64,000 nt of DNA from a virus (IMGVR_UViG_3300046792_000297:1-64000), one strand, 5' to 3'; positions 2,421 to 60,138 are shown, counted from the first letter of the stretch. The notes: generated by a model from the letters alone, not told the origin. Numbers and translations are program-made.

Positions 2421-2860
2421 TGTCCCGCCTTTCTCGCCCGGCGCGTGGCCCAGGCTTTCTGTGCTGCATTCATCGGTTTCGCCGAAGGCGCATCCTTGCA
2501 GATGGCGTCGATGCGTTCGGTCGAGAGGCCGGTCAGGGCCGACATGAGTTTGCGGGCTCCCGCTGCCGGGTCTGGGCCGAACTTGGCCGCGTGCGAAGCG
2601 TCGGCCCGGTTGGCGTAGAGGTTGGAGGCATTGACGCTTTGGTGAATGGTGCCCGCCGCGTAGAAGCTGCCCGGTTCGCCGATGGGCTCGACGACCTCAA
2701 CCATCACCAGGCCGCCCTGGCCGCGTGCAAGCACCTTGACGTTGGCCCCGGTCTTGTCATAGAAGCTCGACAAGAAGTAGACCCCGCCGATCTTCAGCGC
2801 AGCGGCCCGGTCAACGCTTCGCTTCTGCATGGCCCGAAAGTCGATCTTGTACCTTGGCAT
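2417..2860 (-). CDS. hypothetical protein with C-terminal KAWATRR motif
   Basis: first gene after promoter copy 3; ends NAAQKAWATRRARKAGQ. Confidence 0.8.
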   Translation of the reverse strand: MPRYKIDFRAMQKRSVDRAAALKIGGVYFLSSFYDKTGANVKVLARGQGGLVMVEVVEPIGEPGSFYAAGTIHQSVNASNLYANRADASHAAKFGPDPAAGARKLMSALTGLSTERIDAICKDAPSAKPMNAAQKAWATRRARKAGQ

Positions 2861-2880
2861 TCGTTCTCCTCAACTCAAGT

Positions 2881-2911
2881 ATAGTGTAGCACGTTAATCT
2901 AATTGATGCAA
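2881..2911 (-). promoter_or_regulatory. repeated early promoter, copy 3
   Basis: TTGCAT-CAATTAGATTAACGTGC-TACACT. Confidence 0.85.
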
Positions 2912-2912
2912 G

Positions 2913-3200
2913 TCAATGCGAGACGCCGAGCGCCGACCAGTTGTCGCGCACTGCCGGGTCCGGGGCGGGAAAGACGATGTGCGGCGGCTCGTGGCGCGAA
3001 GCGATCACGATGGCCTGGATGGCGGCTTGTTTGGTGGCGAAAGCGCCGTGCATGTAGCGGGGATTCTGGGACCGGTAGCCGCCCATCCTCGAAGCGGCCC
3101 ACTGGCCGTCGACCGGCCAGATGATGCCGCGCTTGATGCCCTTCACTTCGACGAAGTTGGCATCCCAGTTCGGTACTTTCGAGAGCGATACGTTCTTCAT
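2913..3200 (-). CDS. hypothetical protein
   Basis: ORF with GAGG upstream. Confidence 0.7.
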   Translation of the reverse strand: MKNVSLSKVPNWDANFVEVKGIKRGIIWPVDGQWAASRMGGYRSQNPRYMHGAFATKQAAIQAIVIASRHEPPHIVFPAPDPAVRDNWSALGVSH

Positions 3201-3207
3201 GGTTTCC

Positions 3208-3570
3208 TCACTTGCCGAATTCGCGGGCCAGCACGGCGTAGGCCGCGCTGACCACCTTGAAGGCTTCGGTGGCGGCGTGGACGCTCATGCCGTTCAGGGC
3301 GGCGCGGTCGGGATGCACCTTCATGGCCAGCTTGCGGTAGGCGCTCACGATCTCCTGCCAGGTGGCCTTCAGGCCCACGCCCAGGATGGTGCGCGGCGAG
3401 TCCGCTTTGTCGTACAGCACGCGCTCGGCTTCCTCGACGCCCATGCGCTGGTAGAACGCGCCGGTCCAGTCATGCGGGTTGCCGTAGCCGTCGGCGTCGG
3501 GATTGTACCGCTTCCTCGCGGCGTCGATCTCGGCGAAGGTCTTGCGAGGCTTGGGGTTTCCACGGGGCAT
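3208..3570 (-). CDS. J-domain (DnaJ-like) protein
   Basis: ILGV...EIVSAYRKLAMKVHPD...FKVVSAAYAVL, HPD motif intact. Confidence 0.9.
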   Translation of the reverse strand: MPRGNPKPRKTFAEIDAARKRYNPDADGYGNPHDWTGAFYQRMGVEEAERVLYDKADSPRTILGVGLKATWQEIVSAYRKLAMKVHPDRAALNGMSVHAATEAFKVVSAAYAVLAREFGK

Positions 3571-3579
3571 CGGCGGCTC

Positions 3580-3819
3580 CTACTTCAACAGGGCTTCGTG
3601 GGGCTGGTTGTGGCCGGGAAGGCCCAAGGCGCGAAGGTGCTTGCAATTGCGGTAGCGAATCCAACCTGGGCAAGAGCACGACCACCAGCGCCCGCTCTTG
3701 CTCTGGGCTACGGTGTAGAGGCGGTTGCTCGACTCCGAGCGAATATCGAAGCGGTTGGTGTAGGCCGCGTTGTCGGCCAACAGTGCCGAGTTCGGGGGTC
3801 GTCTGATAATGATTGCCAT
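3580..3819 (-). CDS. SWIM zinc-finger protein
   Basis: CSCPGW...CKH. Confidence 0.8.
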   Translation of the reverse strand: MAIIIRRPPNSALLADNAAYTNRFDIRSESSNRLYTVAQSKSGRWWSCSCPGWIRYRNCKHLRALGLPGHNQPHEALLK

Positions 3820-3827
3820 GTTCGTCC

Positions 3828-4001
3828 TCATGCTGCCAGTGCGGTGATGCGTGCGTCGTACTCGGCTTCCGCTGCGGCCATTTCCGGGTCGTAGCGGAGC
3901 ACTTCGTCCAGGTAGGCTTCCCAGGTGGCGTCGCAAATCTCGGCCCACTCGGCGTCGGCCTCATCCGGTTCGGGGCCAAGCATATCCAGTTCCTGATCCA
4001 T
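3828..4001 (-). CDS. small acidic hypothetical protein
   Basis: ORF MDQELDML..., D/E-rich. Confidence 0.6.
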   Translation of the reverse strand: MDQELDMLGPEPDEADAEWAEICDATWEAYLDEVLRYDPEMAAAEAEYDARITALAA

Positions 4002-4137
4002 GTCGTTCCCCCTCACGCCGCGCAAACGGCTTCGATCCTTCTCATGCGTTCCGCGCTCGCTGCGTTAAGCCAGGCGATCAGGGCAGCCAACTCTTCTTCG
4101 ATAGTGATTGCCATTCCAGTTCCCTTCCACCAACATG

Positions 4138-4169
4138 TATAGAATAGCAATAAATCTGATTGATGTAAA
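4138..4169 (-). promoter_or_regulatory. repeated early promoter, copy 4
   Basis: TTTACA-TCAATCAGATTTATTGC-TATTCT. Confidence 0.85.
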
Positions 4170-4299
4170 CAGAAATCGTAGGGAATCGTAAGGAATTCTG
4201 CGCCTGTAAACGATGGAAGGGATAGGCTTTAGCGGCGGCCAGAGCGAACGCGGGCCAGCAGGAGGAGCAGCACGACAAAGAACAGGTTCACCATAATGA

Positions 4300-4722
4300 T
4301 TACTCTGCCTCCAACTCGGCCAGGCCGAAGTCGACGAACTGGGTGTGATAGCCGGGAAAACCCACGCTCACCACGCGCTCGGAAACGATCTCCGTCACCA
4401 CGCCCTTGCGATAGCCCAGCCCGGTTTCGGGATTGAACGCGTAGGGCTCGACGGTGCGAACCTTCGCGCCCAACTTGAGCGGCTTCAGGGCCGCGTGCCG
4501 GATGTAGCTTTTGCCTGCCAGCGGTCGTTTGTCGCCGGGGTAGAACAGCTTGGCGACCTTGGCGAATGCCTCGTCGTGGCTGGCGGCCTCGATGGCGAAG
4601 CTCTCCGTGTTCCAGCCGCCGCGCCGGTCCTGGGCTTCGGTGTGCGACGTGGCGCGGCCCGTCACCAGTCCCTTGTTCTTGGCGCTGCGCCCGTTGGCAA
4701 TCACGCGAATGCGGTACTCCAT
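4300..4722 (-). CDS. hypothetical protein
   Basis: coupled ORF. Confidence 0.7.
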   Translation of the reverse strand: MEYRIRVIANGRSAKNKGLVTGRATSHTEAQDRRGGWNTESFAIEAASHDEAFAKVAKLFYPGDKRPLAGKSYIRHAALKPLKLGAKVRTVEPYAFNPETGLGYRKGVVTEIVSERVVSVGFPGYHTQFVDFGLAELEAE

Positions 4723-4985
4723 CAGCGGCCTCCCTCGGCGTCGGCGATGTGATCGACGATTGCGTCGATCTCACGCTGGACTTCCTTGATCTTGACGATG
4801 CGGGCCTCGTGCTCGGCCTGCGCCGTGTGCAGGCCCATCGGACCTTGCGTGTAGTAGTCCCTGCCGTTCGGCCCTTCGCTGTACATCAGCTTGAGCGCGT
4901 CGCCCAGCGCGTGGCTCATCTTCAGCCAGCCCTCCAGCAAATCGTTCTTGCTGGTGCCGTTCAGGTGGATGGTGGGCAAGATCAT
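4722..4985 (-). CDS. hypothetical phage protein
   Basis: MILPTIHLNGTS...PNGRDYY; coupled. Confidence 0.7.
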   Translation of the reverse strand: MILPTIHLNGTSKNDLLEGWLKMSHALGDALKLMYSEGPNGRDYYTQGPMGLHTAQAEHEARIVKIKEVQREIDAIVDHIADAEGGR

Positions 4986-5401
4986 GCGGCCTCCTCGAAG
5001 TCCAGTTTCGGTTCCTGGCCGTGGATCACGGCGCGGATGGGTTGCGACGTCACCGGGACGCTGCCCAGGATCAGGTCCGCCGGGACCGGGCGTTCGCTCT
5101 TCAGCCAGCGGCCCTTGGCCATTGCCTGGGCCAACGGGTCGGCGTTGTCTACTTCCCATTCGTGCTCGCCGGGGGCGAACGCTACGATGGCGATCTTCCC
5201 GCTACCCATCGCCTTGTGAAACTGCCAGTCCATCTTTCCGGCCCAGCGCACCGCGTCGGTGAGGTTATCGAAGGCGTAAACCTCGCCCTGGCCGTAGCGT
5301 TCGCCGCTGGCTTTGGCCCAGTTGCTGGTCTGGAAGCGCAGCAGCCCCTTGGCTTGGATGGCCGCGACCTTGTTGGTGTGCGTGACGTGATAGAGCGTCA
5401 T
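4982..5401 (-). CDS. hypothetical protein, possible ADP-ribosyltransferase/KptA-like fold
   Basis: LYHVT...IQAKGL...VYAF pattern; weak. Confidence 0.45.
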   Translation of the reverse strand: MTLYHVTHTNKVAAIQAKGLLRFQTSNWAKASGERYGQGEVYAFDNLTDAVRWAGKMDWQFHKAMGSGKIAIVAFAPGEHEWEVDNADPLAQAMAKGRWLKSERPVPADLILGSVPVTSQPIRAVIHGQEPKLDFEEAA

Positions 5402-5769
5402 CTAGTTCCCTCCGCAAGTAGTTTGGGCATGTTCGCCGGGTTGACGTGCAGAGTGATGCCGACATCCTTGCCGCAGAAGTACGACCGCTCCACGCATACG
5501 ATGCCATCGGGCAGGGTCACGCGATCCGCGCCGCCCAGCGGGCGGTCGAAAGCCGACTGCGCGGGCACCGGCACCACCTTGCTGGTGGTCAGGCAAAAGA
5601 ATACAAAATAGTCGCGGCTGCCGCCATCCCAGTAGCTGGCCACGTTCAGCGGGCGGTCTTGGGTTTCGATGCTCACGCCCTTGCGGATTTTCACATCCGG
5701 GTAGCAGGCCGCGATGATGGCTTTGAGGCTGGCATCCGGCTTGAGTACGGTTCGAGTGGCAAGTGACAT
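5398..5769 (-). CDS. hypothetical phage protein
   Basis: SYWDGGSR...FCGKDVG; follows promoter copy 5. Confidence 0.75.
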   Translation of the reverse strand: MSLATRTVLKPDASLKAIIAACYPDVKIRKGVSIETQDRPLNVASYWDGGSRDYFVFFCLTTSKVVPVPAQSAFDRPLGGADRVTLPDGIVCVERSYFCGKDVGITLHVNPANMPKLLAEGTR

Positions 5770-5786
5770 TCGATCCTCCAACAAGA

Positions 5787-5816
5787 ATAGTATATCACGA
5801 ATCAAATTGATGTAAA
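5787..5816 (-). promoter_or_regulatory. repeated early promoter, copy 5
   Basis: TTTACA-TCAATTTGATTCGTGA-TATACT. Confidence 0.85.
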
Positions 5817-5826
5817 CATAAAAGAG

Positions 5827-5864
5827 AGCGATAATTATGGGATAAATACACCATAATTATCGCT
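5827..5864. repeat. perfect 14-bp inverted repeat (possible terminator or operator)
   Basis: AGCGATAATTATGG-10 nt-CCATAATTATCGCT, flanked by A and T runs. Confidence 0.7.
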
Positions 5865-5866
5865 TT

Positions 5867-6175
5867 TTACCAGATCGGCGAAGGGCGGGCGCGGCGTTCG
5901 GTGAAGTAGTGGCGGTACATGTCCGGGTCCTGGGCCTTCATCACCCGGCGGGCCATCGCCCGATACCAGAGGGCCTGGGCCTTGACCCAGTCGCGGTCCA
6001 CTTCCGGCGGCAGGATGCCGATCTGCTCCAGGCACCAGCCGCGCATCTCGCTGCGGACCACGCGATCCTCCCAGAGCACGGAGTAGACGTCGCCGTCCTC
6101 GACTGGAGTGCGGGCGCGGAAGCGCCGTTCCACTTCCGCGCGGTAGAGTGTCGTGTGTTGGTCGGTCCAGGTCAT
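5867..6175 (-). CDS. hypothetical protein
   Basis: coupled ORF. Confidence 0.7.
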   Translation of the reverse strand: MTWTDQHTTLYRAEVERRFRARTPVEDGDVYSVLWEDRVVRSEMRGWCLEQIGILPPEVDRDWVKAQALWYRAMARRVMKAQDPDMYRHYFTERRARPSPIW

Positions 6176-6414
6176 CCGCGTTCCGCTATCGCGGCGTCGA
6201 TGGCCCAGTCGCCGCCCGTGGGCTCGCCCGACTGCGCCCGTTCCATCAGTTCCAGGTGACGGGCTTCAGCCTTGGGGGGCTGGTGGGCGAATTCGACCAA
6301 GTGGCGCTCGTGGTCGAGGATGGCCAGGACGGTCTCTTCGCCGACGATCTCCTGTAGGCGGGCGATGGTTTGGGCGAGGGTGTTGCGCAGGGCAAGGACT
6401 TCAGATGAGGGCAT
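6172..6414 (-). CDS. hypothetical protein
   Basis: AGGAG upstream; coupled. Confidence 0.7.
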   Translation of the reverse strand: MPSSEVLALRNTLAQTIARLQEIVGEETVLAILDHERHLVEFAHQPPKAEARHLELMERAQSGEPTGGDWAIDAAIAERG

Positions 6415-6802
6415 CGCTTCTCCTTTGCGTTTTGTTGCGCTGTGGTTGCAGCCCGAACATCACATGCCAAATCCGATGCAGGGCGTTGACGTATGGCTTG
6501 CCGACTCGTCCGATGTGGTGCTCACATTCGGATTTGAAGTTCGACCAACTCTGCTCCTTGGCCATTTCCTCCAGGCAGGCCGCCCAGACTTGCTTGGGCA
6601 CAAACATCCGAAACAGGTAGTCGGTTCCGCTCGACTCGACGATCTTGCCATCCAAGCCGAATCGCTCCTTCAGATTCTCAAGGTGTTGTTTGACTCTGGC
6701 GCGGACCATCAGGTTGTCGGGGTCGATGCACCAGTTGCCGTCCTCATCCTGCTTGTCGGCGCAGGCGACCGAATAGAATCCGTACACGGTAAAAATCCAC
6801 AT
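6401..6802 (-). CDS. conserved phage hypothetical protein
   Basis: MWIFTVYGFYSV...VRAR...DY.FR...NFK pattern. Confidence 0.75.
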   Translation of the reverse strand: MWIFTVYGFYSVACADKQDEDGNWCIDPDNLMVRARVKQHLENLKERFGLDGKIVESSGTDYLFRMFVPKQVWAACLEEMAKEQSWSNFKSECEHHIGRVGKPYVNALHRIWHVMFGLQPQRNKTQRRSDALI

Positions 6803-6819
6803 TTAGATGACCTCGCAGT

Positions 6820-7854
6820 TCATGGGTAAACTTCCAATTGTCGTTTCAGCACCGGCACGATGCGAGCGACCGCCTGGCGCAGCAGGTACACGCCGCGTTT
6901 ATCCTCGCCGCCGCCAGGCGGAATAGCTCCATCAAGCGGATAGGTGAAGGGCAGCTTAGGTTCGTTCTTGTAGCGCACAAAGGCGGCGCGGCCCGCAGGC
7001 CCGACCAGGTAAGAACTGAGCACCGTGACCGTGCCAGCCTTGAGGTCGATCAGGATACGGCGTTGCTGGTAGCGCAGCCAGGTGCAACCTTTGAGCAGGT
7101 CTGGATCGTTCTCCATGTGTTGACGGCCAAGCTGGGCCACGCATTCCTTCGAGTTTGGATAGTAGGAGTACAGTGTGACGGTAAACTGCTGCTCCTTGCG
7201 ATTGGCAAACCAAGTGGCCCAGCCTTCGGTGGCGACGTAGCTGGTGATAAACAGTTGGATGTCTGGTTCGGCATAGACCGGGATCGGCGCGAACCAGCGA
7301 CAAGGTACTTCGTCGCTGACCAGGTCCGGTCCACCGCCCAGGCCCGGCACCACCAGGCGCATGGCGTCGTCCATGCAGTCTAAGGCCGATTGCGCCTGGA
7401 CAGGTGCCAGCCAGAACAAGGAAAGCAGCAGCATCGCGGCAGCGGCCACCACCTTCTTGACGCGCGGCTGGCGCGGCTTGGTGAGGGCGATCTCCGCGCC
7501 GTACTCGCAGCCGATGCCATCCTTGGCCCACTGGGGCAGCTTGTCGTTCATGCGTTCCTTGCGCTGGCGGCGCAGCCAGGCGGGCGGCTTTTCGAGTTCG
7601 GTCATCACGCCCAAGTACCAGGCGTCGTTGCCGTGCTCGGTGAAGTAGCCGCGCACCTTGGCCCAGCCCAGCCCGTTCATGGTCACGTAGATGCGCTGGC
7701 CGATGGCGGGCAGCGCAAACGGAGCGCTCCACAGCATTTCGGTCCCGCTGGCGTCCAGGTAGACAGCCAACTGCTTGCCCAGCGTATTGGCGCTGGTGCG
7801 GCCCGTGGCTTGGGGCGTGAGAATGAAGAAACGCGGCGCGTGGCTCTGGCTCAT
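6820..7854 (-). CDS. two-part protein with internal signal/TM segment
   Basis: internal KKVVAAAAMLLLSLFWLAPVQAQS. Confidence 0.65.
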   Translation of the reverse strand: MSQSHAPRFFILTPQATGRTSANTLGKQLAVYLDASGTEMLWSAPFALPAIGQRIYVTMNGLGWAKVRGYFTEHGNDAWYLGVMTELEKPPAWLRRQRKERMNDKLPQWAKDGIGCEYGAEIALTKPRQPRVKKVVAAAAMLLLSLFWLAPVQAQSALDCMDDAMRLVVPGLGGGPDLVSDEVPCRWFAPIPVYAEPDIQLFITSYVATEGWATWFANRKEQQFTVTLYSYYPNSKECVAQLGRQHMENDPDLLKGCTWLRYQQRRILIDLKAGTVTVLSSYLVGPAGRAAFVRYKNEPKLPFTYPLDGAIPPGGGEDKRGVYLLRQAVARIVPVLKRQLEVYP

Positions 7855-7859
7855 AATGA

Positions 7860-10457: not shown

Positions 10458-11768
10458 CTATGCCGCAGCGGCTGCCGCCGCTGCCTTGGCTCTGCGAGTG
10501 GCCCACGCCTTGTGGGCCGCGTTCATCATGCCGGGCTCGATCACCGGCTTGGGAGCCGGGGCGGGCTGGCTGGCCTTGCGGGTGGCCGCTGCCTTGTAAG
10601 CGGCGGCGCTGGCGGCTTCCTTGACCGTGGGCCGAATGTTTACGTTGACCACCGGAGCGGCAATCGCCGCTGGCTTGACGGCTTCGCCCTTGAAGCGGAG
10701 GCTCTCGTACTGGTCGGCCACGGACTTGTCGTCGCGCTCGCCCTTGTAGACCGCTTGGTAGAGCGAACCGCCGCGCTGAAGGTTCATGTACTCCACTTCC
10801 ACATAGGTGCCGGGAGTCGGGACCTTGTGATTCGGTGGGATGGTAACTTTGCCGACCTCGATCCAGTCGCTGCCGTTCAAGACGGCCACGAACACGCTGG
10901 ACTTCTCGCCGTTCTGCTTGACCACCACACAGGTGGCCGAGCCCAGGAACTTGAACTTGAGCGCGTTGCCGCCCACGTTGGGCCGACCGGGAGTGTACTT
11001 GGCGGACAGCTTCTTGAACACCACGCCCTCGCCCCGCGCCGCCGTGACCTGATCGAACAGGGCCACCTTCTGCCTGACCGTGTTGGCCTTGGCCACGCGA
11101 CCGAGGTAGGGCGACTTCAGCGTGTCGAGCAAGGCTTCGAGCACCGCCAGCCGCTTGTCCAGCGCCCAGCCGGTAAGGTCGATGCCGTCGTAACGCAGGA
11201 TGTCGAACGGCCAGTAGACGTCGCCGACCAGTTCCCCGTCCAGCATAAAGTCCGCTTCCCGCTTGGTCTTCAAGCCCAGAATCATGCTGGCCAGTTCGTC
11301 GCTCACCGGCACCACCAGCCCGCTGCGGTTGCCGCCCGTAACCAGAGCGCCTCGGCGGGTGATCGTGCGGCGATGACCGTCGATCTTCTCTTCCATTTGC
11401 CAGTCGTCGTTCTGCATCAGGGCCATCAGGCGGGTTTCGTCGATGGCGTTGAGCAGCATGAGCGCCGGGCCATTGGCCGCCGGTTCGGCGGCTGCCGGTG
11501 CGACCGGAGCAGCGGCGGGAGCAGGAGGGGCCTGGGGAACCTCCAGCGCGTAGCCCTTGGCCAGTTTCTCGGCCACCAGCGCCTCAAAGATACGCGTGGC
11601 GTCGGCCAGCGGCACGGCGCTGCGGGTCTTGGTGCCCGACTGAAGCGTGCCGCCCCGGCGGCCATAGAGGTAGTTCACGATGAAGCCATCCCGGTAGGCC
11701 GCCACGCTGGCGTGGTACACCTTATCCGATTTGCCTTCCGAAAACGCCAGTTTTGCAGAGAGTGCCAC
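10458..11768 (-). CDS. WGR-domain ATP-dependent DNA ligase with KAWATRR tail
   Basis: N-terminal SDKVY...YGRRG...KLAKGY; ligase motifs EKIDG, LDGELV, FDIL, EGVVFK, LKFK; OB-like region; GTG start with GGAGG. Confidence 0.9.
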   Translation of the reverse strand: MALSAKLAFSEGKSDKVYHASVAAYRDGFIVNYLYGRRGGTLQSGTKTRSAVPLADATRIFEALVAEKLAKGYALEVPQAPPAPAAAPVAPAAAEPAANGPALMLLNAIDETRLMALMQNDDWQMEEKIDGHRRTITRRGALVTGGNRSGLVVPVSDELASMILGLKTKREADFMLDGELVGDVYWPFDILRYDGIDLTGWALDKRLAVLEALLDTLKSPYLGRVAKANTVRQKVALFDQVTAARGEGVVFKKLSAKYTPGRPNVGGNALKFKFLGSATCVVVKQNGEKSSVFVAVLNGSDWIEVGKVTIPPNHKVPTPGTYVEVEYMNLQRGGSLYQAVYKGERDDKSVADQYESLRFKGEAVKPAAIAAPVVNVNIRPTVKEAASAAAYKAAATRKASQPAPAPKPVIEPGMMNAAHKAWATRRAKAAAAAAAA

Positions 11769-11799
11769 TTGTCGATCCTCCTGAATTACCACTGCAAGA

Positions 11800-11830: not shown

Positions 11831-11831
11831 C

Positions 11832-16227: not shown

Positions 16228-17622
16228 CTATGCCGCTGTCGCGGCTCTGGCGCGGCGGGTGGCCCACGCCTTCTGTGCGCCGCTCATGCCGGGGAGCGCG
16301 GGCTGGGCCGGGTCCTCGGCGGGTGCGATGGCCTTGGCGGCATTCTTCCAGTTCTCCGCAAGACCCCAACGTTCGGCGCAAATCGGGCCGTACCCGGCTG
16401 CCGTCGAGCGGGCATCGCTCAAGGTCAAGTGGCAGAAGCAGCAGTGGCCGGTGAGGTTGCCATACTTGGCCACCACCGCGTGCGGATCGACGGCCAGTTC
16501 GGTCAGCACGCCGGTCAGCGCGGCCAGAAAGGCGGGGCGGCTTTCGGCGTCGCGGCCCGGCTTCCACTCGCCTTCCGGCGTGATGGTGCCGTAGTAGCTG
16601 CGTTGCCCATAAGCGCCGGGCGTGACCACCATGACGTTGCCGTACACCTTGGACTTCGCTCCCGCCCGGTAGAGTTTCACTTCCTGGCCCTCCACCATCA
16701 GGTTGAAGGCGGGGAACTTCAAGTTCTTGGCGGCCAGTTCGAACATCGCGATCACGGGCTGAAAGCTGCCCAGGTTGGTGGGCGTGGCGGGAGCCGCTGG
16801 CGCGGGAGCCGGTTCGCTCACCAGGCCGTCGCGGCGGTCGTAGAAGCCGGGCACCTTGCTGGCGATGATGCTCTGCGCCTTGGCGGGCAAGCTGTCCACC
16901 GCCCGACCGGTCTCCAGTTCCTTGACCATCGAACCGAAGAAGTTGGTCGCGTAGCCGTAGCTGTCGAAGTTGGCGTAAGGCATCAGGGCTTCCACCAGCC
17001 ATGCGTTGGCGGCCACGGCGGCGGCTCTGGCGGCCTCCTCGGCAGCCTTGGCGGCGGCAGCCAGGCTTTCGGCCTCGGCCCGCGCCTGGGCCAGCGCAGC
17101 GGCCTTGGCGATGGCATCGGCATCGACCGCCATCTCGCCGATGGCCAGAACGCGGAGGCGCTTCAGGGCGGCGGGCACGTCGCTGTTCACCCGCTCGATC
17201 ACGAAGCGCAGGTAATCCAACTCCGTCTTGCCGGTGCTGGCGAAGTATTCGTTGGGATGGGGGCGGCTGCCCAGCGCGGCCACCACGGTGGGATGGGCCA
17301 GGAGCGCCAGGGCTTCCTTGCGATCCTCGACCAGCTTGGCGGCGCGGGCTTCGCGGCGCTTGGCGTTCAGGGCTTTCTTCACCGTGTCGAACAACCCGGC
17401 GTCGCCGGTCTTGCGCACGCACTCGTTGCCCACCTTGAACCGCTTGCCGTTGGCGTCGCGAATCCAGCAGCACTCCACGATGGCCGTGCCGCAGTAGTCG
17501 CACGCCGCGCCCGGCTTCCTGATACCGGTGCCGGGGATGGTGAACCACTTCTCCTCGACCGCCACAAAGCGGAAGGGCGCAACGCCCAGCCCGGCTTCCT
17601 CGAACTTGTGCATCATTGCCAT
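16228..17622 (-). CDS. DUF6011 zinc-binding domain protein with KAWATRR tail
   Basis: CCFCHLTLSDARSTAAGYGPICAERWG; N-terminal CDYCG...VGNECV. Confidence 0.8.
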   Translation of the reverse strand: MAMMHKFEEAGLGVAPFRFVAVEEKWFTIPGTGIRKPGAACDYCGTAIVECCWIRDANGKRFKVGNECVRKTGDAGLFDTVKKALNAKRREARAAKLVEDRKEALALLAHPTVVAALGSRPHPNEYFASTGKTELDYLRFVIERVNSDVPAALKRLRVLAIGEMAVDADAIAKAAALAQARAEAESLAAAAKAAEEAARAAAVAANAWLVEALMPYANFDSYGYATNFFGSMVKELETGRAVDSLPAKAQSIIASKVPGFYDRRDGLVSEPAPAPAAPATPTNLGSFQPVIAMFELAAKNLKFPAFNLMVEGQEVKLYRAGAKSKVYGNVMVVTPGAYGQRSYYGTITPEGEWKPGRDAESRPAFLAALTGVLTELAVDPHAVVAKYGNLTGHCCFCHLTLSDARSTAAGYGPICAERWGLAENWKNAAKAIAPAEDPAQPALPGMSGAQKAWATRRARAATAA

Positions 17623-40408: not shown

Positions 40409-41660
40409 CGGCCTGGAGGACTGGACGCTGGCGGTCGACGCCGACTTTGATGAGTCGGCAGTCAAGCGGGTTAGCAAAGGCAAGGAAGGCGGCGGGCAGT
40501 TCACGTCCAAGGGCGGCGGCGAAGAGAAGGGCGAGGAAGCCTACTTCGCGAGTGGTATTGGACCGGGAGAAGAAGCGGAGCCGGGTTACGAGCCGCCTGC
40601 CAAGAAACTGACGCCGGGTCAGAAAGCGGCGGCGACCAAGGCTGGCAAGAAGGTAATGGCCGCAGCGGCAGCGGTCCACCAGAAGACAGAAGCCGCGCAG
40701 CCGCCACAGCCCGTCACAGCCTCGAAGCATCCGAACTGGGCCGCGATGTCGCCGGGGCAAAAGGCCGCCTGGACGAAGAAGCAGAACCAGGCGGCCAACA
40801 ACAAAAAGATTCAGGAAGCGGCAAAGGCCACACCGGCCCAGCAGAAGCAGGCGGAGCAGGCGCTGACGGCGGCGGAGCAGAAGGGCCACAAGCCGCTCTG
40901 GGTCAAAGCCACGGTGAACGGCGAACCCCAAATCTTCAAGCTCCAAGGCGTGCCCAGCGGCCTGGATAGTACGGCCAGCGTGCAGAAGCTGCTGGGCGAA
41001 CAGCCCGATAAGTGGGGCGAGCTACACCCGGTTAGCGTTCAGAACGTGTCGCTGTGGAATGAATCGAAACCTCTGCCTCCCGCTTTCGAGACCGTCACGG
41101 CAGAGCAGAAGGCCATCGACAAGCTGGAAACCGAGAAGTACGAAGAGGCCAAAGCGGCGGTCCTGGCCAGCGGCCCGATCACTAGTAGCGAGTCACTAAG
41201 CGACGACATCATCTCTTCCATCAAGAGCTACACTGACGGCAGCTACCTGGCCCTGAATAAGGCGCTGCGAACCGGGCAGCCTCTGCAAAGCCACCAGGCC
41301 GTAATGGCGGCCAACCTGGACAAAGCCATTCGGAACAACAAGGTGCTGAGTGAGCGCAAGGTTTATCGTGGGCTTACGGATGCCGAAAAGTTCTTCGGCC
41401 CGACCGTGAAGATCGGCACCATCGTGATTGACAACGGCTTCATTTCAGTCAGCAAACACAGGGACACCGCCGATAACTTCGCGGGCTACAACGGCAAGGT
41501 GTGCGTGATTTCGCTGCCCAAGGGCAGCCCGGCGCTGGACATAGAGGCGTGGAGCTTGCTTGGCGATAGTGAGAAAGAAGCCCTATTACCTCGTGGTTCA
41601 ATGTTCAAAGTCACCAACGTGAGCGGCAAGGAGGTTCACCTTGAGTATGCCAACTATTGA
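40389..41660 (+). CDS. ADP-ribosyltransferase (VIP2/Alt-like) with shared N-terminal leader
   Basis: YT..SY..LN.ALR, VYRG, GFISVS, EKEALLPRG (R-S-ExE). Confidence 0.9.
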   Translation: MNSLIANGLEDWTLAVDADFDESAVKRVSKGKEGGGQFTSKGGGEEKGEEAYFASGIGPGEEAEPGYEPPAKKLTPGQKAAATKAGKKVMAAAAAVHQKTEAAQPPQPVTASKHPNWAAMSPGQKAAWTKKQNQAANNKKIQEAAKATPAQQKQAEQALTAAEQKGHKPLWVKATVNGEPQIFKLQGVPSGLDSTASVQKLLGEQPDKWGELHPVSVQNVSLWNESKPLPPAFETVTAEQKAIDKLETEKYEEAKAAVLASGPITSSESLSDDIISSIKSYTDGSYLALNKALRTGQPLQSHQAVMAANLDKAIRNNKVLSERKVYRGLTDAEKFFGPTVKIGTIVIDNGFISVSKHRDTADNFAGYNGKVCVISLPKGSPALDIEAWSLLGDSEKEALLPRGSMFKVTNVSGKEVHLEYANY

Positions 41661-41832
41661 CCCCGAGCGGCTGAAGCGTTACCAGTGGGACCAGGACTCG
41701 CTCACCGTGGCCAGCGTGGGCACGGGCGAGGAAGTCAAGCTCGACCAGCCCAAGGAGGCCAAGAAGGACGACCAGGCCAAGGACCAGGCCATCTTCTCCA
41801 ACTCGCTCGACGTGATGCTGGACGAGGAATAA
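41647..41832 (+). CDS. small acidic protein, putative ART inhibitor, with C-terminal copy of the leader motif
   Basis: overlaps ART stop; GGAGG upstream; ends AKDQAIFSNSLDVMLDEE. Confidence 0.7.
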   Translation: MPTIDPERLKRYQWDQDSLTVASVGTGEEVKLDQPKEAKKDDQAKDQAIFSNSLDVMLDEE

Positions 41833-42752
41833 TGATTAGCTGCCTGATCGCCAACGGCTTGGAAGACTGGACCCTGGCGGTCGACGACTTCAAGGAAGCG
41901 GCGGTTCCGCGCGACGAGTCGGGCAAGTGGACCGGCAAGGGCGGTTCGAGCGGCGAAGCCAAGCCCCTGAACGCGGCGCACAAAGCCTGGGCCACGCGCA
42001 AAGCTAAACAGCAGGCGGCGCAATCGAAGAAGCCGGTCGACTATCTGGCCAAGAAGGTCGGCGGGCAAGGGGGCTCCAATCCGGGCGGGACCTATGAGGG
42101 CAGTGACGGCAAGAAACGCTACGTCAAGTTCTACAAGAACATGGCGCAGGGTCGGGCGGAATGCACGGCGGACACTATCTACAACGACCTGGGCATCGGC
42201 GCACACAAGAGCGACGTGTTCGAGGCGGACGGCAAAGAGGCGTTCGCGGCGGAACTGATCGACGGCGGCGACCTGCTCAAGGATGTGGGCCTGAACAAGG
42301 AGAACGCTCGCGCCATCATGGAAGGCTTCGCGGCAGACGTGCTCATGGCCAACTGGGACAGCGTCGGCCTGGTCAACGACAACATCCTGCTCAAGGATGG
42401 CAAAGCCTACCGCATCGACAACGGGGCCACCTTCACGCACCGCGCGATGGCGTCCAGTCCGCCCAAGCCGGAAGGGCTGCTGCACAAGATCACCGAATGG
42501 GACGGGCTGTTCAACCCCAACATCAACGCGCAGTTCAGCCAGGTCGCCAAGGCCGCCGGATACAAATCGCCCAGCGACATCCCCGACATCAAGGCGCAAG
42601 TGGAGAAGATCGTCAAGCTCCGCGACCAGAGCGGCGGGTGGGACAAGTACCTCCAGGGCAAAGCGCCGTTCCTGTCCGACCAGGAGCGAAAGCAGTATGC
42701 CGGAATGCTGGACAGCCGCACCAAGCTACTGAGGGAGAAAGTCCAGGCGTGA
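41832..42752 (+). CDS. HipA/PI3-PI4-kinase-fold protein with shared leader and KAWATRK
   Basis: GGSNPGG.Y...YVK...AE; D..MANWD...NIL...RIDNG. Confidence 0.75.
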   Translation: MISCLIANGLEDWTLAVDDFKEAAVPRDESGKWTGKGGSSGEAKPLNAAHKAWATRKAKQQAAQSKKPVDYLAKKVGGQGGSNPGGTYEGSDGKKRYVKFYKNMAQGRAECTADTIYNDLGIGAHKSDVFEADGKEAFAAELIDGGDLLKDVGLNKENARAIMEGFAADVLMANWDSVGLVNDNILLKDGKAYRIDNGATFTHRAMASSPPKPEGLLHKITEWDGLFNPNINAQFSQVAKAAGYKSPSDIPDIKAQVEKIVKLRDQSGGWDKYLQGKAPFLSDQERKQYAGMLDSRTKLLREKVQA

Positions 42753-49462: not shown

Positions 49463-50743
49463 ATGAACGCCAGCTTTGCCAACTCCCTCGACGGGATCGA
49501 CTGGGACGAGTCAGCCTGGGCGCTCGACGCCGAGTTCGATGAATCGGCCATCAAGCGTGTAAGCGCGGGCAAGGAAGGCGGCGGCCAGTTCGCGTCCGGC
49601 GGCGGAGCCGCAGGAGCCGAAGCTGGAGCCGAGGCGGGCGAACGCGAGCCCGTGGCGGGCGGTGAACAGGAAGCGGGCGCAGAGGGCGAGGAAGGCGAAG
49701 AGGACGAAGAGGAAGACGAAGAGGCGGGAGCCAAGCAGAAGGCCCGCAAGTCGGCCCACCTGGTAGCGGCGGGCGAGAACCGCGAGCAGTGGCCGGAACA
49801 CATTCGCAAGATGGTCATCCCACCCGCCTGGACCGACGTCCAGATCGCCATGTCGCCCGACGCCGACCTGCAAGTGGTGGGCCGGGACAAGAAGGGCCGC
49901 AAGCAGTACGTCTACTCGGAGCAGTTCAAGAACTCGCAGGCGGCGCTGAAGTACGCCCGCATGGAGTCGCTGCGCCAGGAGAAGCCGGGTATCATCGGCC
50001 AGCTTGCGGAGATGCACCAGAGCGCCGACCGCAAGCTGCGCGACCACGCCGACTGTGCCACGCTGGTCATGAAGATGGGCATCCGGCCTGGCTCGGACAC
50101 CGACACCAAGGCGGAGAAGAAGGCTTACGGCGCGAGCACGCTCGAAGGCAAGCACGTGGTGGTCGAGAACGGCCAGGTCTTCCTGCGCTTCACGGGCAAG
50201 AAGGGCGTCGACCTGAACCTGCCGGTCGAGGACAAGACGCTGGCCGCCAACCTGGCCAGCCGGGCCAAGAAGGCCGGGGCGGAGGGGCGGCTGTTCGGCG
50301 ACGTGTACTCCGGTTCGCTGCTCCAGTTCGTCAAGAAGGACCTGGATCACGGCGGCTTCAAGACCAAGGACTTCCGTACCCTGCTGGCCAACGAGTTGGC
50401 CGTCAAGGCCATGAAGGGCGTGGCCAAGCCCAAGGATGCCAAGCAGTACAAGGCGGCGGTCAAGGAAGTGGCCACGCACGTGTCCAGCCGGTTGGGCAAC
50501 ACACCCACGGTCGCGCTCCAGTCCTACATCCACCCGGCGGTGTTCGGCGAGTGGAAGGGGGCCGCCGACGTACCGGCGGTCCAGGCCAAGGGCAAGAAGA
50601 AGGGTAAAGCCAAGGGGAAGAAGAAGCCCGCCGCCAAGCCCGCCGAGCCCGGCAAGCTGAGTGGAGCCGCGCTGGCCTGGGCCACGCGGCGAGCCGCCAA
50701 GGAGGCCGCCCATGCCGGAACCGCAGCCGCAGCCGCAAGCTGA
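49463..50743 (+). CDS. DNA topoisomerase IB with shared leader and AWATRR tail
   Basis: IPPAWTDV, GRD.KGRKQY.Y, GIRPG, F.GKKG, KDFRT, LGNT, SYIHP. Confidence 0.95.
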   Translation: MNASFANSLDGIDWDESAWALDAEFDESAIKRVSAGKEGGGQFASGGGAAGAEAGAEAGEREPVAGGEQEAGAEGEEGEEDEEEDEEAGAKQKARKSAHLVAAGENREQWPEHIRKMVIPPAWTDVQIAMSPDADLQVVGRDKKGRKQYVYSEQFKNSQAALKYARMESLRQEKPGIIGQLAEMHQSADRKLRDHADCATLVMKMGIRPGSDTDTKAEKKAYGASTLEGKHVVVENGQVFLRFTGKKGVDLNLPVEDKTLAANLASRAKKAGAEGRLFGDVYSGSLLQFVKKDLDHGGFKTKDFRTLLANELAVKAMKGVAKPKDAKQYKAAVKEVATHVSSRLGNTPTVALQSYIHPAVFGEWKGAADVPAVQAKGKKKGKAKGKKKPAAKPAEPGKLSGAALAWATRRAAKEAAHAGTAAAAAS

Positions 50744-55905: not shown

Positions 55906-55999
55906 TAATGATTATTTTGGCCCTGTTCGCGCTGGCCGTACTCCTGGCGCTCAGCCGTTGGTGGCCCGACCTGTTGAACCCGCTCTGAGGAGAATCGGT

Positions 56000-56335
56000 A
56001 TGGACACCAAGAAGACTGTCGCCTGGATCAAGACCGCCCTCATCTCGTCCGTGGTCGGCGGCATCATGGCCGCCATTGCCGCCGCCTGCGATCCGTCCAA
56101 GTACCGCTTCCCCCAGGACTTGGGCAGTGGGAAGCTCTGGCCGTTCTTTCTGGCCGGGGCGGGGGCGATGTTCGGCGGGATGCTGCTGAAGTCGCCGCTG
56201 GGTCAGTCGGCGCTCAGCACGTTCAAGGACAGCCAGGCGCAACTGGCGCAGAGCAAGCAGGACCTGGCCGACGCCAAGGAGCAACTCAAGCAAACCCCGA
56301 CCGGGCCGCCGCCCAACGGGCCGGGAAAGGCGTAG
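56000..56335 (+). CDS. two-TM membrane protein (holin-like)
   Basis: two hydrophobic segments plus coiled-coil tail; GAGGAG upstream. Confidence 0.55.
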   Translation: MDTKKTVAWIKTALISSVVGGIMAAIAAACDPSKYRFPQDLGSGKLWPFFLAGAGAMFGGMLLKSPLGQSALSTFKDSQAQLAQSKQDLADAKEQLKQTPTGPPPNGPGKA

Positions 56336-56342
56336 CGTCGTA

Positions 56343-57203
56343 ATGCCCGGCTTCCGCCCGCCCAACCGCATCGAGATCGCTTACCGGCGGGCCATCACCG
56401 ACGCGCTGGCCGAACTGCTCGGCCTGATCCCGCCCGACCTCAGTGAAGGCGAGTGGCTCACCCAACTGGCGGCGCTCGGCTACCGCCCGGAGATGCTCGA
56501 CCTGGCCGCTCGCACGGCCTACAAGATGGTCGAGTGGATCAACATCGACAACGCCAAGAGTTGGCGGGCCGCCTCGCGGCAGTCGCAACGCTCGCAAAGA
56601 TTATTCCGCCTCTTGCAGCACGAACTGGCCGGGCCGGTCGGCGTCACCCTGAACTGGCTGGTGCGGGAGAACGCCAAGCTGATCTCCTCGATCCCGTCGA
56701 CTGTCGCGTCGATGTTGACCGGCGAGATCGCGACGGCGGCGCAGGGCGGAGCCCGGCACGAAACGATGACGCGGATGATGCGGGTCCGCTTTCCCGAATT
56801 GACCCACAACCGCATCGCCCTGATTGCTCGCACGGAGACGGCCAAGGCGTCGACGGCGCTCACGCGAGCGCGGTCGGAAGAGTTGGACCTGACCTGGTTC
56901 GTCTGGAAGACTTCGGAGGATCGCCGGGTGCGCCCGGCGCATAAGAACCTGAACGGCGTGCTGGTTTCCTGGGCCGACCTGCCGCAGCCCGAGGCGCTGA
57001 TCGGGGAGAAGAGCACGCTGGGCAAGGGCGCGGCGGGCGACTTTCCCAACTGCCGCTGCTACCCCGCCCCGTTGCTCTCGCTCGACGACGTGTTCGCCAA
57101 CGGCAGCGTGCGGGCGCGGGTGTATCACAACGACCACATTGAACGCATGACGCGGGCGCAGTTCGCGCGGCTGTCGGGCGTCGAGCGCCGCTACGCGGCT
57201 TGA
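56343..57203 (+). CDS. MuF/SPP1 gp7-like head morphogenesis protein
   Basis: LIARTETAKA, W.T..D.RVR..H..LNG, NCRC. Confidence 0.93.
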   Translation: MPGFRPPNRIEIAYRRAITDALAELLGLIPPDLSEGEWLTQLAALGYRPEMLDLAARTAYKMVEWINIDNAKSWRAASRQSQRSQRLFRLLQHELAGPVGVTLNWLVRENAKLISSIPSTVASMLTGEIATAAQGGARHETMTRMMRVRFPELTHNRIALIARTETAKASTALTRARSEELDLTWFVWKTSEDRRVRPAHKNLNGVLVSWADLPQPEALIGEKSTLGKGAAGDFPNCRCYPAPLLSLDDVFANGSVRARVYHNDHIERMTRAQFARLSGVERRYAA

Positions 57204-57214
57204 AGGACACCATA

Positions 57215-58444
57215 ATGCCTACACGCAAGGATGCAGTCGCCGACCTGGGCTTCGATCCCACCGGCAAGCAGGACTGTTCGCCCCGTCTGACCGACTACCT
57301 CAATTCCAGCGACGCCAATGGCGGCGAACTGCACTTCCCTGCCGGGCGCTACTACTACCGCTCCACCGTGGAAAGCAACCAGAAGAACGTCAAGTTGGTG
57401 GGCGACGCACACTTGGCCAACATGGGCGACAGCCCGGTGGCCTTCTGCTCCGATCAGTATCTTGAGGCGATTTTGTGGTGGAACGGTTCGCAACCTACTT
57501 CCAATATGAACGGGCCGAGAATCGACCACGTTCAATTTCAGGACACCAGCAGCGACCACGCTCACTTGCGTAGCGCCATCCGCCTCACCGCGACCGCGAA
57601 CGCGGAACTCAAGGTGGGCTTTTTGAATCTTCATCCGCAACGCTACTGCAATGGCACGGCGGCGGTGAGCACCAACTCGAAGACCGTTCAGGGAGCGGGC
57701 ACCAAGTGGCAGGACTACATGAGCCGCTGTGCCTGGCTGGTGATTGATGGCTATCCGTATGAGATCGCCAGCGTGGAGTCGGAGACTGCGCTGACGCTGG
57801 CCATCGAGTACCAGGGGCCGACCGCCAGCAATAAAGGATACGCAATCAACTGGGGCGGCGTGGGCGTGTGGCTCGATCCAGGCACAGACTTTTGTCAGTA
57901 TGGCAAAGAATGGAGCTTGAATGGCCGCTGTGCGTGCGCCCTGTTCGCAGCGGCGGGCGCTACCAGCCCGCGCTACACCGGGACCAGCAGGATCAAGGTA
58001 TTGAGTGGCTACTTAAATGGCGAGGGGATTCCAGACAGCATCGCCGGTTATTTCGGACCCTATTCCGACACGTTCGTTTGGGATTGCGCCATGAACTCGT
58101 TTGCCTTCGGACTTGTCATTGCGAACGGACACCAGCACGACGTGCAACATGGCGATTATGAAAATGCTGGCGGGCCGGTGCCGGTCACGGGTAAGCCGTT
58201 GAGCTACGATTCCTGCCACGGCATCCTGGTCATGTCCTCCAATCACAGCGATACCTGGGGCAACCGCCTGGGTGGATATTTCAGACAGATCGGGACGGCG
58301 ATGGAACTCTATGGCACGCCCGGCAAAGCGCCTGATTGGACAATCATCGGCGTGTCCACCTTCCGCTCCAACAAGGCCAAGCTGATCGTGGGCAACGCCA
58401 CCAACACCGAAATTCTGCAACCGTCGCTCGCGGGCGGCGTGTAA
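57215..58444 (+). CDS. beta-helix (pectate-lyase-like) protein
   Basis: DLGFDPTG..D....L...GG.LHFPAGRY. Confidence 0.7.
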   Translation: MPTRKDAVADLGFDPTGKQDCSPRLTDYLNSSDANGGELHFPAGRYYYRSTVESNQKNVKLVGDAHLANMGDSPVAFCSDQYLEAILWWNGSQPTSNMNGPRIDHVQFQDTSSDHAHLRSAIRLTATANAELKVGFLNLHPQRYCNGTAAVSTNSKTVQGAGTKWQDYMSRCAWLVIDGYPYEIASVESETALTLAIEYQGPTASNKGYAINWGGVGVWLDPGTDFCQYGKEWSLNGRCACALFAAAGATSPRYTGTSRIKVLSGYLNGEGIPDSIAGYFGPYSDTFVWDCAMNSFAFGLVIANGHQHDVQHGDYENAGGPVPVTGKPLSYDSCHGILVMSSNHSDTWGNRLGGYFRQIGTAMELYGTPGKAPDWTIIGVSTFRSNKAKLIVGNATNTEILQPSLAGGV

Positions 58445-58459
58445 ACCACGGAGGGACTA

Positions 58460-58828
58460 ATGCCGCTTACCAACAAGGGCGAATCAATCTTGAACTCGAT
58501 GCGCGAAACTTACCCCTCGGAGGCAAAGGCCAAAGAGGTCTTCTATGCCTCAAAGAACGCACACACCATCAGTGGCGTCGACGCCATGTGCCGCGACGCC
58601 GACGAGATCGACGACGTGGGCCAGTCGGTGCTGCACGCGGTCGATGCGGAGTATCCCATGCCTGGCCAACTGCCCGGCATCCGCATCAACGAGACGGGCC
58701 AGTCGGTGCTGCACGCCATCGACGCGAACGGCGGCGGCAACTCGGGCGCGGTGATCTCGCCCACGCCGGAACTGGGCCAGAGCGCCTACCAGCGTGGCGA
58801 GGCCATCCCCGAAGCTAAGCGGGATTAG
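58460..58828 (+). CDS. small head-region protein with repeated GQSVLHA(V/I)DA motifs
   Basis: MPLTNKG..IL..M...Y......VFYASKN. Confidence 0.75.
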   Translation: MPLTNKGESILNSMRETYPSEAKAKEVFYASKNAHTISGVDAMCRDADEIDDVGQSVLHAVDAEYPMPGQLPGIRINETGQSVLHAIDANGGGNSGAVISPTPELGQSAYQRGEAIPEAKRD

Positions 58829-58830
58829 CC

Positions 58831-58890
58831 GTCTGCCACGTCGCGCCAACTTGCGCCATGTCGCGCCAACGAACGCCAACTTGCGCCAAC
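58831..58890. repeat. six 10-bp phased repeats (NNNYGCCAAC-like)
   Basis: GCCA core at 58835, 58845, 58855, 58865, 58875, 58885. Confidence 0.8.
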
Positions 58891-58914
58891 GAACTCAATA
58901 ACCAGGAGGTTGTC

Positions 58915-59073
58915 ATGATCGCAGTAATTTTGATCATTCTGGTGTTAATGAATGGCATTGGGGCATGGGCATCCCCACAACCGGGTTACTACAGGCATGG
59001 ATGGGGCGTGTTGGGTTTGATTTGCCTAATCCTGTTGATCATCTTGTTACTAAAGCCAGAGTTGCTCCACTGA
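58915..59073 (+). CDS. small two-TM membrane protein
   Basis: AGGAGG upstream; two hydrophobic stretches. Confidence 0.7.
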   Translation: MIAVILIILVLMNGIGAWASPQPGYYRHGWGVLGLICLILLIILLLKPELLH

Positions 59074-59081
59074 GGGCCGCC

Positions 59082-59447
59082 ATGACGATACAGGCTGGAC
59101 ACTCCGCATTCTCCGATCCACCCGCCGTGACCCATGCGGTCCAGCGCGACGAGCAGGGGCGCTTCGCCTCAGATGGCATCGGCGCGGGCAACTCCGCCTT
59201 GAGCGAACTCGCGCCCATCAATGCTCTACCCGTGCAGGTCTACGAAGCCTCGGAAAGCGAAGGCCCGCCGTTCGGCAGCGAGGCGGTGATCGAGCGCAGC
59301 GACGCGGGCCAGGCGACCAGCGAGCAGGCGGTCGAGCCGCTGATCAGCGCGGCCAAGGACGAAATGCGTCACCAGGAAGAGGGCTGGGACCCCGCCGGGT
59401 CGGCTCCGCAGCCGCTGCGACCGTGGGACGACAGCGCGGCCAAATAA
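59082..59447 (+). CDS. acidic head-region protein with RDEQGRF motif
   Basis: GHSAF, QRDEQGRF, GNSAL, AAKDE. Confidence 0.7.
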   Translation: MTIQAGHSAFSDPPAVTHAVQRDEQGRFASDGIGAGNSALSELAPINALPVQVYEASESEGPPFGSEAVIERSDAGQATSEQAVEPLISAAKDEMRHQEEGWDPAGSAPQPLRPWDDSAAK

Positions 59448-59471
59448 CACCACATTAATCATTGTCGAGTA

Positions 59472-59705
59472 ATGTCCTGGGTTCACCGGACGAGCGCCGT
59501 GATGCGCCTGGGAGTTGCTTTCATGGATGACCAACGCAAGGTTAGCCCAAACGAAGTCCGCGCCATGCAGGCGGAACTCGACCGTATGGAGCGCGAAAGC
59601 CCCCACCATCCTGAGATCGACGCCCTGCGCAACCGGCTCCAGATTGCCTACCTCGAACTGGGCGTGCAGGAATTCGGAGGACACCATGCCGATGAATCCG
59701 GGTAA
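59472..59705 (+). CDS. hypothetical protein
   Basis: ORF overlapping next gene; start uncertain. Confidence 0.55.
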   Translation: MSWVHRTSAVMRLGVAFMDDQRKVSPNEVRAMQAELDRMERESPHHPEIDALRNRLQIAYLELGVQEFGGHHADESG

Positions 59706-60138
59706 CTCGGCCTTCGAGGCCATGCCGGTCGTCCACGACAACTTCACGTCGCTGGGGCCGGGCTCCATCCCGGTCACCGACGCCCGCGAGCTTCCCTTCG
59801 CGCCGGACTCCCTTCCGGCGCTCGACGCGGGCACCACCGAGGGCGCGAAGAAAGCCTGGGAGTCGCGCAGCGGCGGCGAGCCGACCACCTCCAAGGGATC
59901 GCGCAGCAAAGCCAATTCTGGCCTGGCCACCATCTCGCGCAAGTATCACAACTCGATTCCGGTACAGGAAATCAACCACGCCCTGACCTCCGCTGGCCTC
60001 CAGCCGATGGAAGGCGGAATTTTCACCGGCAAAGAGGGGCGCTCGCACGAACAGGTTGGCCCCAACACCTGGCTCTCCTTGCAGTGGCACAAGATGGAAG
60101 CCACCGGGCGCTGGGAAATCAACGCCTACGTCAGCTAA
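59686..60138 (+). CDS. head-region protein with GNSAF leader, ALDA site and KAWESR
   Basis: GGAGG upstream; PALDAGTTEGAKKAWESR. Confidence 0.75.
   Translation: MPMNPGNSAFEAMPVVHDNFTSLGPGSIPVTDARELPFAPDSLPALDAGTTEGAKKAWESRSGGEPTTSKGSRSKANSGLATISRKYHNSIPVQEINHALTSAGLQPMEGGIFTGKEGRSHEQVGPNTWLSLQWHKMEATGRWEINAYVS

Follow-up and report, generated by a model that had tools for sequence, protein, structure and literature searches.

Why should a single phage attach the same short peptide to several of its proteins? The question is raised by a 64,000-nucleotide stretch of viral DNA (IMGVR_UViG_3300046792_000297:1-64000, hereafter the window), the first part of a virus record of 103,954 bp with approximately 62% GC. 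An initial annotation of the window reported a peptide with the core KAWATRR on seven unrelated proteins of the early and head modules, and proposed that it is a short basic helix that tethers proteins to DNA or to one shared partner. From the complete record and from large sequence collections we find that the motif (the tag, or the KAW unit where it is repeated) is real, conserved, modular, enriched in viruses and preferentially fused to DNA enzymes. The reading that we favour, and consider reasonably probable, is that the tag is a modular nucleic-acid-binding, probably DNA-binding, helix that would tether enzymes to DNA independently of the capsid leader carried by some of the same proteins.

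The window encodes a phage portal (38633–40408) with distant portal matches among GenBank phages. A megablast search with 12 kb of the window gave no match among these phages, and the virus has no close cultured relative there.

Occurrence of the tag in the phage genome

A six-frame regular-expression scan found all six of the peptides first reported with coordinates where they were said to lie, and was then followed by a scan of the whole genome. The strong copies share the signature [ML]-[NS]-[AG]-A-x-K-A-W-A-T-R-[RK]-A, mostly with a Pro in front, which is longer than the version first described. The copies were scored with a hidden Markov model (HMM) built solely from the copies of other phages. 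The carriers and copies are the following (i-E, independent E-value).

2417–2860, minus strand: p147, 147 residues, with the C-terminal tag MNAAQKAWATRRA; no Pfam or PHROG match
2435–2473, minus strand: tag MNAAQKAWATRRA of p147 (32.2 bits, i-E 4.5e-9)
10458–11792, minus strand: ATP-dependent DNA ligase with an N-terminal WGR domain (PF01068 2.8e-16, PF05406 2.5e-4, phrog_114)
10488–10526, minus strand: tag MNAAHKAWATRRA of the ligase, running into an oligo-Ala end (22.6 bits)
10572–10607, minus strand: degenerate ligase copy AAAYKAAATRKA, Ala in place of Trp (10.1 bits, i-E 0.04)
16228–17622, minus strand: DUF6011-containing protein with a C-terminal tag (PF19474 2.4e-12, phrog_4046)
16249–16287, minus strand: tag MSGAQKAWATRRA of the DUF6011 protein (19.8 bits)
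40611–40652, plus strand: degenerate candidate TPGQKAAATKAGKK in the ART protein, doubtful (negative HMM score)
40749–40784, plus strand: degenerate candidate SPGQKAAWTKKQ in the ART protein, doubtful (no HMM detection)
41832–42752 (or 41685–42752), plus strand: kinase-like cargo protein, with the tag in the linker after the capsid leader
41967–42005, plus strand: tag LNAAHKAWATRKA in the N-terminal linker of the kinase-like protein (25.5 bits)
49463–50743, plus strand: type IB DNA topoisomerase (PF01028 8.6e-18, PF21338 4.3e-10)
50657–50695, plus strand: tag LSGAALAWATRRA of the topoisomerase, Leu replacing Lys (10.9 bits, i-E 0.02)
59851–59868, plus strand: EGAKKAWESR/KAWESR in a small head-module protein, lacking T-R-R (4.0 bits, i-E 3.4)
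Genome 90491–91234, outside the window, plus strand: p247, with SPGQKAWITRK near its N-terminal end (9.7 bits, i-E 0.055)
Genome 96523–97725, outside the window, minus strand: clamp-loader/RuvB-like AAA+ ATPase ending in SNAALKAWATRRR (24.9 bits)

Scored in this way, the copies on p147, the kinase-like protein, the AAA+ ATPase, the ligase and the DUF6011 protein reach 20–32 bits, and those of the topoisomerase, AAAYKAAATRKA and p247 approximately 10 bits. Five of the seven carriers first named (p147, ligase, DUF6011 protein, kinase-like protein and topoisomerase) are thereby retained, and the HMM supports neither the ART protein nor the protein at 59851, whose KAWESR is probably not a member of the tag family. 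The ART peptides do resemble the [ST]P[GA]QKA[WA]xT[RK] subtype found in p247 and in its orthologue in G001, a relative with a complete genome of 95.6 kb. In that orthologue SPAQKAAITRRQ stands where p247 has SPGQKAWITRK, so that AAAYKAAATRKA, a degenerate second copy upstream of MNAAHKAWATRRA in the C-terminal tail of the ligase, and perhaps the ART peptides too, are plausible decayed copies. The carriers are mutually unrelated, as originally described, and every copy lies by eye in a flexible terminus or linker, which for the topoisomerase is also seen in an AlphaFold model. Specifically, the topoisomerase runs from capsid leader through acidic linker, catalytic core and Lys-rich linker to the C-terminal tag.

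Could such a short peptide recur by chance in Ala/Arg-rich tails, or as a recently copied, functionless DNA cassette? High-GC genomes do abound in Ala and Arg codons. However, the pattern [KL]AW.T[RK] is observed 7 times in the 109 coding-like open reading frames (ORFs) of the genome, against 0.007 expected from whole-protein shuffles and 0.013 from shuffles within blocks of 30 residues, which keep the local Ala/Arg richness. The codons also differ between copies, as the initial annotation had noted, and do so at synonymous sites, the copies are found by a model trained on other phages, and orthologues conserve their tags. Chance or passive copying is thus so improbable as to be negligible: the tag is non-random and under selection at the level of the protein.

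The labels of two carriers are uncertain. The protein first labelled a kinase (HipA/PI3K-like) matches nothing in Pfam, in PHROGs or among PDB sequences, and the label is unconfirmed; p247 has no Pfam match, and its N-terminal domain is only weakly ParB/Spo0J-like (Spo0J, E 0.16). The presence of a WGR domain (E 2.5e-4, just below the Pfam cut-off) is unusual for a phage ligase. Oligo-Ala ends follow the C-terminal tags at 10458–10487 (…AKAAAAAAAA), 16228–16248 (…ARAATAA) and 50696–50743 (…HAGTAAAAAS); Ala-rich tails also end the G001 orthologues and the close topoisomerase homologues, and they resemble C-terminal signals of the ssrA type.

Conservation in relatives and independence of the capsid leader

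G001 is a true relative, with a terminase 78% and a portal 65% identical to those of this phage. Its ligase and topoisomerase orthologues (55–56% identical) keep the C-terminal tag, and these two tags are all that it has, the number in the present phage being unusually high. Its orthologue of p147 is 49% identical over residues 1–85 and then diverges, without a tag, and it has no orthologues of the kinase-like, DUF6011 or AAA+ proteins. Among the best 120 topoisomerase homologues in a collection of 5.8 billion proteins only the 4 closest are tagged, reading LAWATRR, RAWATRR, KAWASRR or KAWATRR, and the others end just past the catalytic core. An AAA+ homologue in another viral contig (L042), at only 26% identity, is also terminated by a tag. 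These three comparisons indicate that the tag is an add-on which is gained, lost and then conserved.

The topoisomerase homologues of other phages (P0035–P0136) carry further domains by fusion, namely portal-type DUF1073, Mu F, zeta-toxin kinase, NUDIX or ART. Such fusions follow the pattern of polyvalent or cargo proteins, and would fit a virion-delivered topoisomerase in the present phage.

The capsid leader is present on the ART protein, the kinase-like protein and the topoisomerase. The ligase, the DUF6011 protein and the AAA+ ATPase lie in early or replication regions, and none of them has a leader. The tag thus occurs both on leaderless early enzymes of replication type and on leader-bearing cargo proteins, and the proposal that it is independent of the leader holds; calling it a second address tag, however, understates what is a more general viral module. 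Like capsid-targeting leaders of the phage T4 type, the tag is a short peptide common to unrelated enzymes of one phage. Unlike them, it is mostly C-terminal, sits on leaderless early enzymes and is common to unrelated viruses, and for these reasons we regard it as a separate module.

It is very unlikely, by the same token, that the tag is itself a virion address, a prohead-protease site or a C-terminal degron. In favour of such a role, three candidate carriers in the head module also bear the leader, and the ligase, DUF6011 protein and topoisomerase end in Ala-rich tails reminiscent of ssrA. But the strongest copies are on leaderless early proteins of replication type, four of the five strong copies in the window are C-terminal, unlike a capsid leader or prohead-protease site, many other viruses have the tag N-terminal or in arrays, and the weak head-module copy at 59851 is rejected by the HMM.

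Spread among viruses and tandem arrays

To find the tag elsewhere, a back-translated A-x-K-A-W-A-T-R pattern was run over a collection of viral contigs, with the reversed pattern as control. There were 94 matches to the forward pattern and 30 to the control, and 36 of the 94 lay in frame within ORFs of 55 codons or more and in the extended context [AGSP]A.KAWATR[RK]. In prokaryote genomes the extended in-frame context was seen in 4 of 120 among the matches listed, at most one of which looks genuine; because this figure rests on those 120 matches, the enrichment in viruses is a comparison of samples. A second viral scan, with KAWETRR, added 63 further loci. Together the two scans gave 78 distinct carriers, on contigs of approximately 25–68% GC that include a giant-virus metagenome-assembled genome (MAG). 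Their 91 copies are distributed as 42 within 30 residues of the C-terminal end, 25 within 40 residues of the N-terminal end and 24 internal. In each of six other phage contigs (L038, L025, L047, L078, L082 and L056) the tag is borne by two or three different proteins. KAWATRR is a widespread viral module, not one private to this phage.

In many proteins the same sequence is repeated. When 1.84 billion representative proteins were searched with a profile, a setting in which a single copy is unable to reach significance, 284 proteins were found at E≤1e-3. Nearly all of the best 150 of these 284 contain 2–5 copies, with 18, 20 and 22 residues as the commonest spacings. The unit consensus is K-R-S-[EA]-A-A-x-K-A-W-[EA]-T-R-R-x-N, in which A(−2), K, W, T and the first R are each at least 94% conserved; units without the Trp are also found inside arrays. 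Array proteins are often tiny, and the arrays are very basic, as known DNA-binding repeats are. The KAWATRR peptide is the single-copy form of the repeat unit K-R-S-x-A-A-x-K-A-W-x-T-R-R-x-N. A word-indexed search with a 44-column profile gave 24 proteins at E≤10, a number that is small because single copies score 24–35 bits against 5.8 billion sequences, and which we use as a source of examples and not as a census. Among GenBank phages tblastn gave no match to an array protein.

Two array proteins (P0155 and P0207) are eukaryote-like, with 4–5 units of RS-x-AA-KKGWETRR-x-N and acidic spacers between them, and one is fused to ubiquitin; as far as these sequences indicate, the unit extends beyond phages. 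Another group (P0152, P0007, P0170, P0289, L248:4759-5634 and L251:3497-4438) has approximately 300–350 residues and 2–5 KAW units at the N- or C-terminal end. By eye an F/LDFxG-type motif is common to its members, which are possibly methyltransferase-like. A TcmP-like identity for the ∼300-residue family within it (P0152, P0007, L248 and L251) was dropped, there being no NCBIfam match, and P0007 and P0152 have no Pfam match either.

Predicted structure

AlphaFold models agree with the short basic helix first proposed. In a carrier of 119 residues, modelled from a 9-sequence alignment, a small N-terminal helix and a beta-hairpin are followed by a long helix (residues 50–108) that contains both copies of the motif at a confidence (pLDDT) of 86–94. 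For the topoisomerase, modelled from a 35-sequence alignment, a confident core (approximately residues 100–368) is followed by coil (369–400, pLDDT approximately 51–63), and the tag is then modelled as a separate helix (401–425, pLDDT 82–86). A Myb-like spacing of Trp residues was also considered, and was rejected because one continuous helix is predicted instead of three-helix bundles. On a helical wheel the conserved residues would cover approximately two thirds of the surface, with the variable positions −1, +3 and +7 forming one stripe. Such a surface would suit a helix that is embedded in a ligand.

The ligand could in principle be a protein, with the tag a docking peptide (a short linear motif) for one hub such as a sliding clamp of host or phage, a single-stranded DNA-binding protein, RNA polymerase or a replisome scaffold. 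Motifs of this kind are typically short and sit at a terminus on a flexible linker, the extent of conserved helix surface would agree with it, and the tag is common to several enzymes of replication type. We nevertheless think a docking peptide unlikely. The unit recurs in phages of 25–68% GC, in the giant-virus MAG and in eukaryote-like proteins, which could hardly share a partner, so the shared-partner alternative of the initial annotation loses ground. The arrays of 3–5 units in tiny, basic, domain-less proteins, together with the interleaving with NUMOD3 described below, also suit DNA better.

Fusion partners

A Pfam search of 70 carriers from the viral contigs identified NUMOD3 (4 carriers), clamp-loader/AAA (3) and RadC (2). 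Found once each were tyrosine integrase, DUF932, the DVNP nucleoprotein (on a giant-virus protein), Mu F, type IB topoisomerase, ligase with WGR, PI3/PI4-kinase, GIY-YIG, MUG113 and DUF2637. The array proteins add DUF5131 (gp37/gp68), an N6/N4 DNA methylase and the ubiquitin fusion.

Most informative are four homing endonucleases, in which KAW units stand among NUMOD3 units in C-terminal DNA-binding tails. Two of them (L233 and L267) are of HNH type by inspection and share the composite repeat KAWETRR-x-NGTD…EQR..MS; the third (L234) is GIY-YIG-like by inspection, and the fourth (P0024) is GIY-YIG by Pfam. In P0024 the best NUMOD3 stretch (212–230) lies away from the KAW units, which are near the C-terminal end.

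The identity of the partners also bears on whether the ligand might be RNA. Specifically, the tag could be an Arg-rich RNA-binding helix like the N peptides of phages lambda and P22, in which A-x-T-R-R with a stacking Trp would bring proteins to structured RNA. The tag is indeed helical and basic with an invariant Trp, and by eye it may resemble the Arg-rich peptides of lambdoid N proteins (…AQTRRRERRAEKQAQW…). But the recognisable partners act on DNA (ligase, topoisomerase, integrase, homing endonucleases, DNA methylase and DVNP), and no RNA element was tied to the motif, although no RNA partner was sought. We therefore regard an RNA-binding role as quite improbable.

A helix that binds DNA is favoured, in our view, by the fusion partners, the tandem arrays and the co-occurrence with NUMOD3 in homing endonucleases. 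Several points weigh against it. A recognisable domain is absent in about two thirds of the carriers, so the bias towards DNA enzymes rests on a minority of them. The kinase-like cargo protein has no evident role on DNA, and carriers elsewhere include a membrane protein (DUF2637) and the ubiquitin-fused eukaryote-like proteins. The Pfam model of NUMOD3 misses the KAW units in pure arrays and tag-only proteins (E up to 1–10), and the sequences in the PDB hold no match to the tag profile. Finally, a lone helix of 12–16 residues would be expected to bind DNA only weakly.

Comparison with known motifs

Is the tag then a known motif under another guise? No model in Pfam, PHROGs or NCBIfam covers it, the PDB gives no sequence match and the ESM Atlas no usable one, and a search of approximately 8.4 million papers with motif strings (KAWATRR, KAWETRR, AWxTRR, GWETRR and others) found nothing relevant, the hits being to the surname Kawatra. 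In kind, however, it appears to belong with the short modular DNA-binding add-ons, although by sequence it is not NUMOD3.

NUMOD3 (PF07460) is described as a minor-groove-binding alpha-helix in I-TevI and I-HmuI (PMC3664794). I-BmoI also has it in its DNA-binding domain. It resembles the KAW unit in being short and helical, in beginning with Ser/Thr and ending with Gly/Asn around a basic centre, in its single or tandem use on extended linkers and in its alternation with KAW in the tails of GIY-YIG and HNH homing endonucleases. The two differ in signature, K-[IM]-S…G-K in NUMOD3 and an invariant W-x-T-R-R in KAW, and KAW reaches beyond homing endonucleases to ligases, topoisomerases, clamp loaders and cargo proteins.

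The AT-hook, with similar small DNA-binding add-ons, is likewise a tiny basic element that occurs alone or in repeats on many unrelated proteins and has weak DNA affinity. The AT-hook is extended, however, with an R-G-R-P core, whereas KAW is modelled as helical with an invariant Trp, and the unit consensus lacks the G-R-P. The basic region of bZIP proteins, N-x2-A-A-x2-[CS]-R, is by inspection similar, being a basic helix that holds an Ala-Ala pair as well as Arg residues, and in the AlphaFold model KAW is continuous with a long helix. But the N/S, AA and R register differs from S-x-AA-x-KAW-x-TRR, and neither a leucine zipper nor another dimerisation element follows the tags of this phage. 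A functional analogy for single-copy tags may be the 'molecular sled' pVIc of adenovirus, a basic peptide of approximately 11 residues that gives its cargo a non-specific, sliding affinity for DNA. KAW has no sequence similarity to pVIc.

Proposed function

If the favoured DNA-tethering reading is correct, KAWATRR would be the core of a helical module of approximately 16 residues, of which P-x-[ML]-[NS]-[AG]-A-x-K-A-W-A-T-R-[RK]-A is the subtype of this phage, and which viruses would attach to unrelated proteins by disordered linkers, as one copy or as a tandem array. The target would probably be double-stranded DNA. Because Ala is small, the helix could come near the backbone or sit in a groove, and contact would be made by the invariant Trp, Thr and Arg-Arg. 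Single copies would confer a weak and largely non-specific affinity. The proteins affected would be the ligase, the topoisomerase, the clamp-loader-like AAA+ ATPase, the weakly ParB-like p247, the DUF6011 protein, p147 and the capsid-delivered kinase-like enzyme, all of which would be kept on phage DNA, the cargo proteins on packaged or injected DNA.

A bolder version, which we regard as improbable, would make KAWxTRR a pan-viral DNA-reading repeat. Units of approximately 20 residues would lie on successive steps of the DNA, positions −1, +3 and +7 would set the preference of each unit as in a modular code, and single copies would act as 'sled' tags keeping viral enzymes, capsid-delivered ones included, on the genome; the target in this phage might be the palindrome AATAATnATTATT.

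Should the tag bind DNA, it would be a very small portable module that turns soluble viral enzymes (ligase, topoisomerase, clamp loader, methylases, nucleases and injected effectors) into DNA-tethered ones. Hundreds of domain-less array proteins and many termini of phage enzymes would gain an annotation, homing endonucleases would have one more building block in their NUMOD-type set, and biotechnology would have a compact tag for fusions. One protein would then combine a capsid leader with a DNA tether, the two signals being independent, as in the topoisomerase and the kinase-like cargo, which suggests that such cargo may stay on the DNA through packaging and ejection.

Neighbouring genes

Two further genes outside the window may be mentioned. 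An HNH endonuclease with a NUMOD3 motif (7.6e-11; genome 93686–94447, minus strand), probably a homing endonuclease, adjoins the gene of the tagged AAA+ ATPase in the replication module. A radical-SAM protein of 283 residues (genome 94823–95674, minus strand) has counterparts of 70–72% identity in four viral loci that are otherwise unrelated (L026, L059, L078 and L090), and in two of these, L059 and L090, the gene lies within approximately 1 kb of a tag-bearing ORF.

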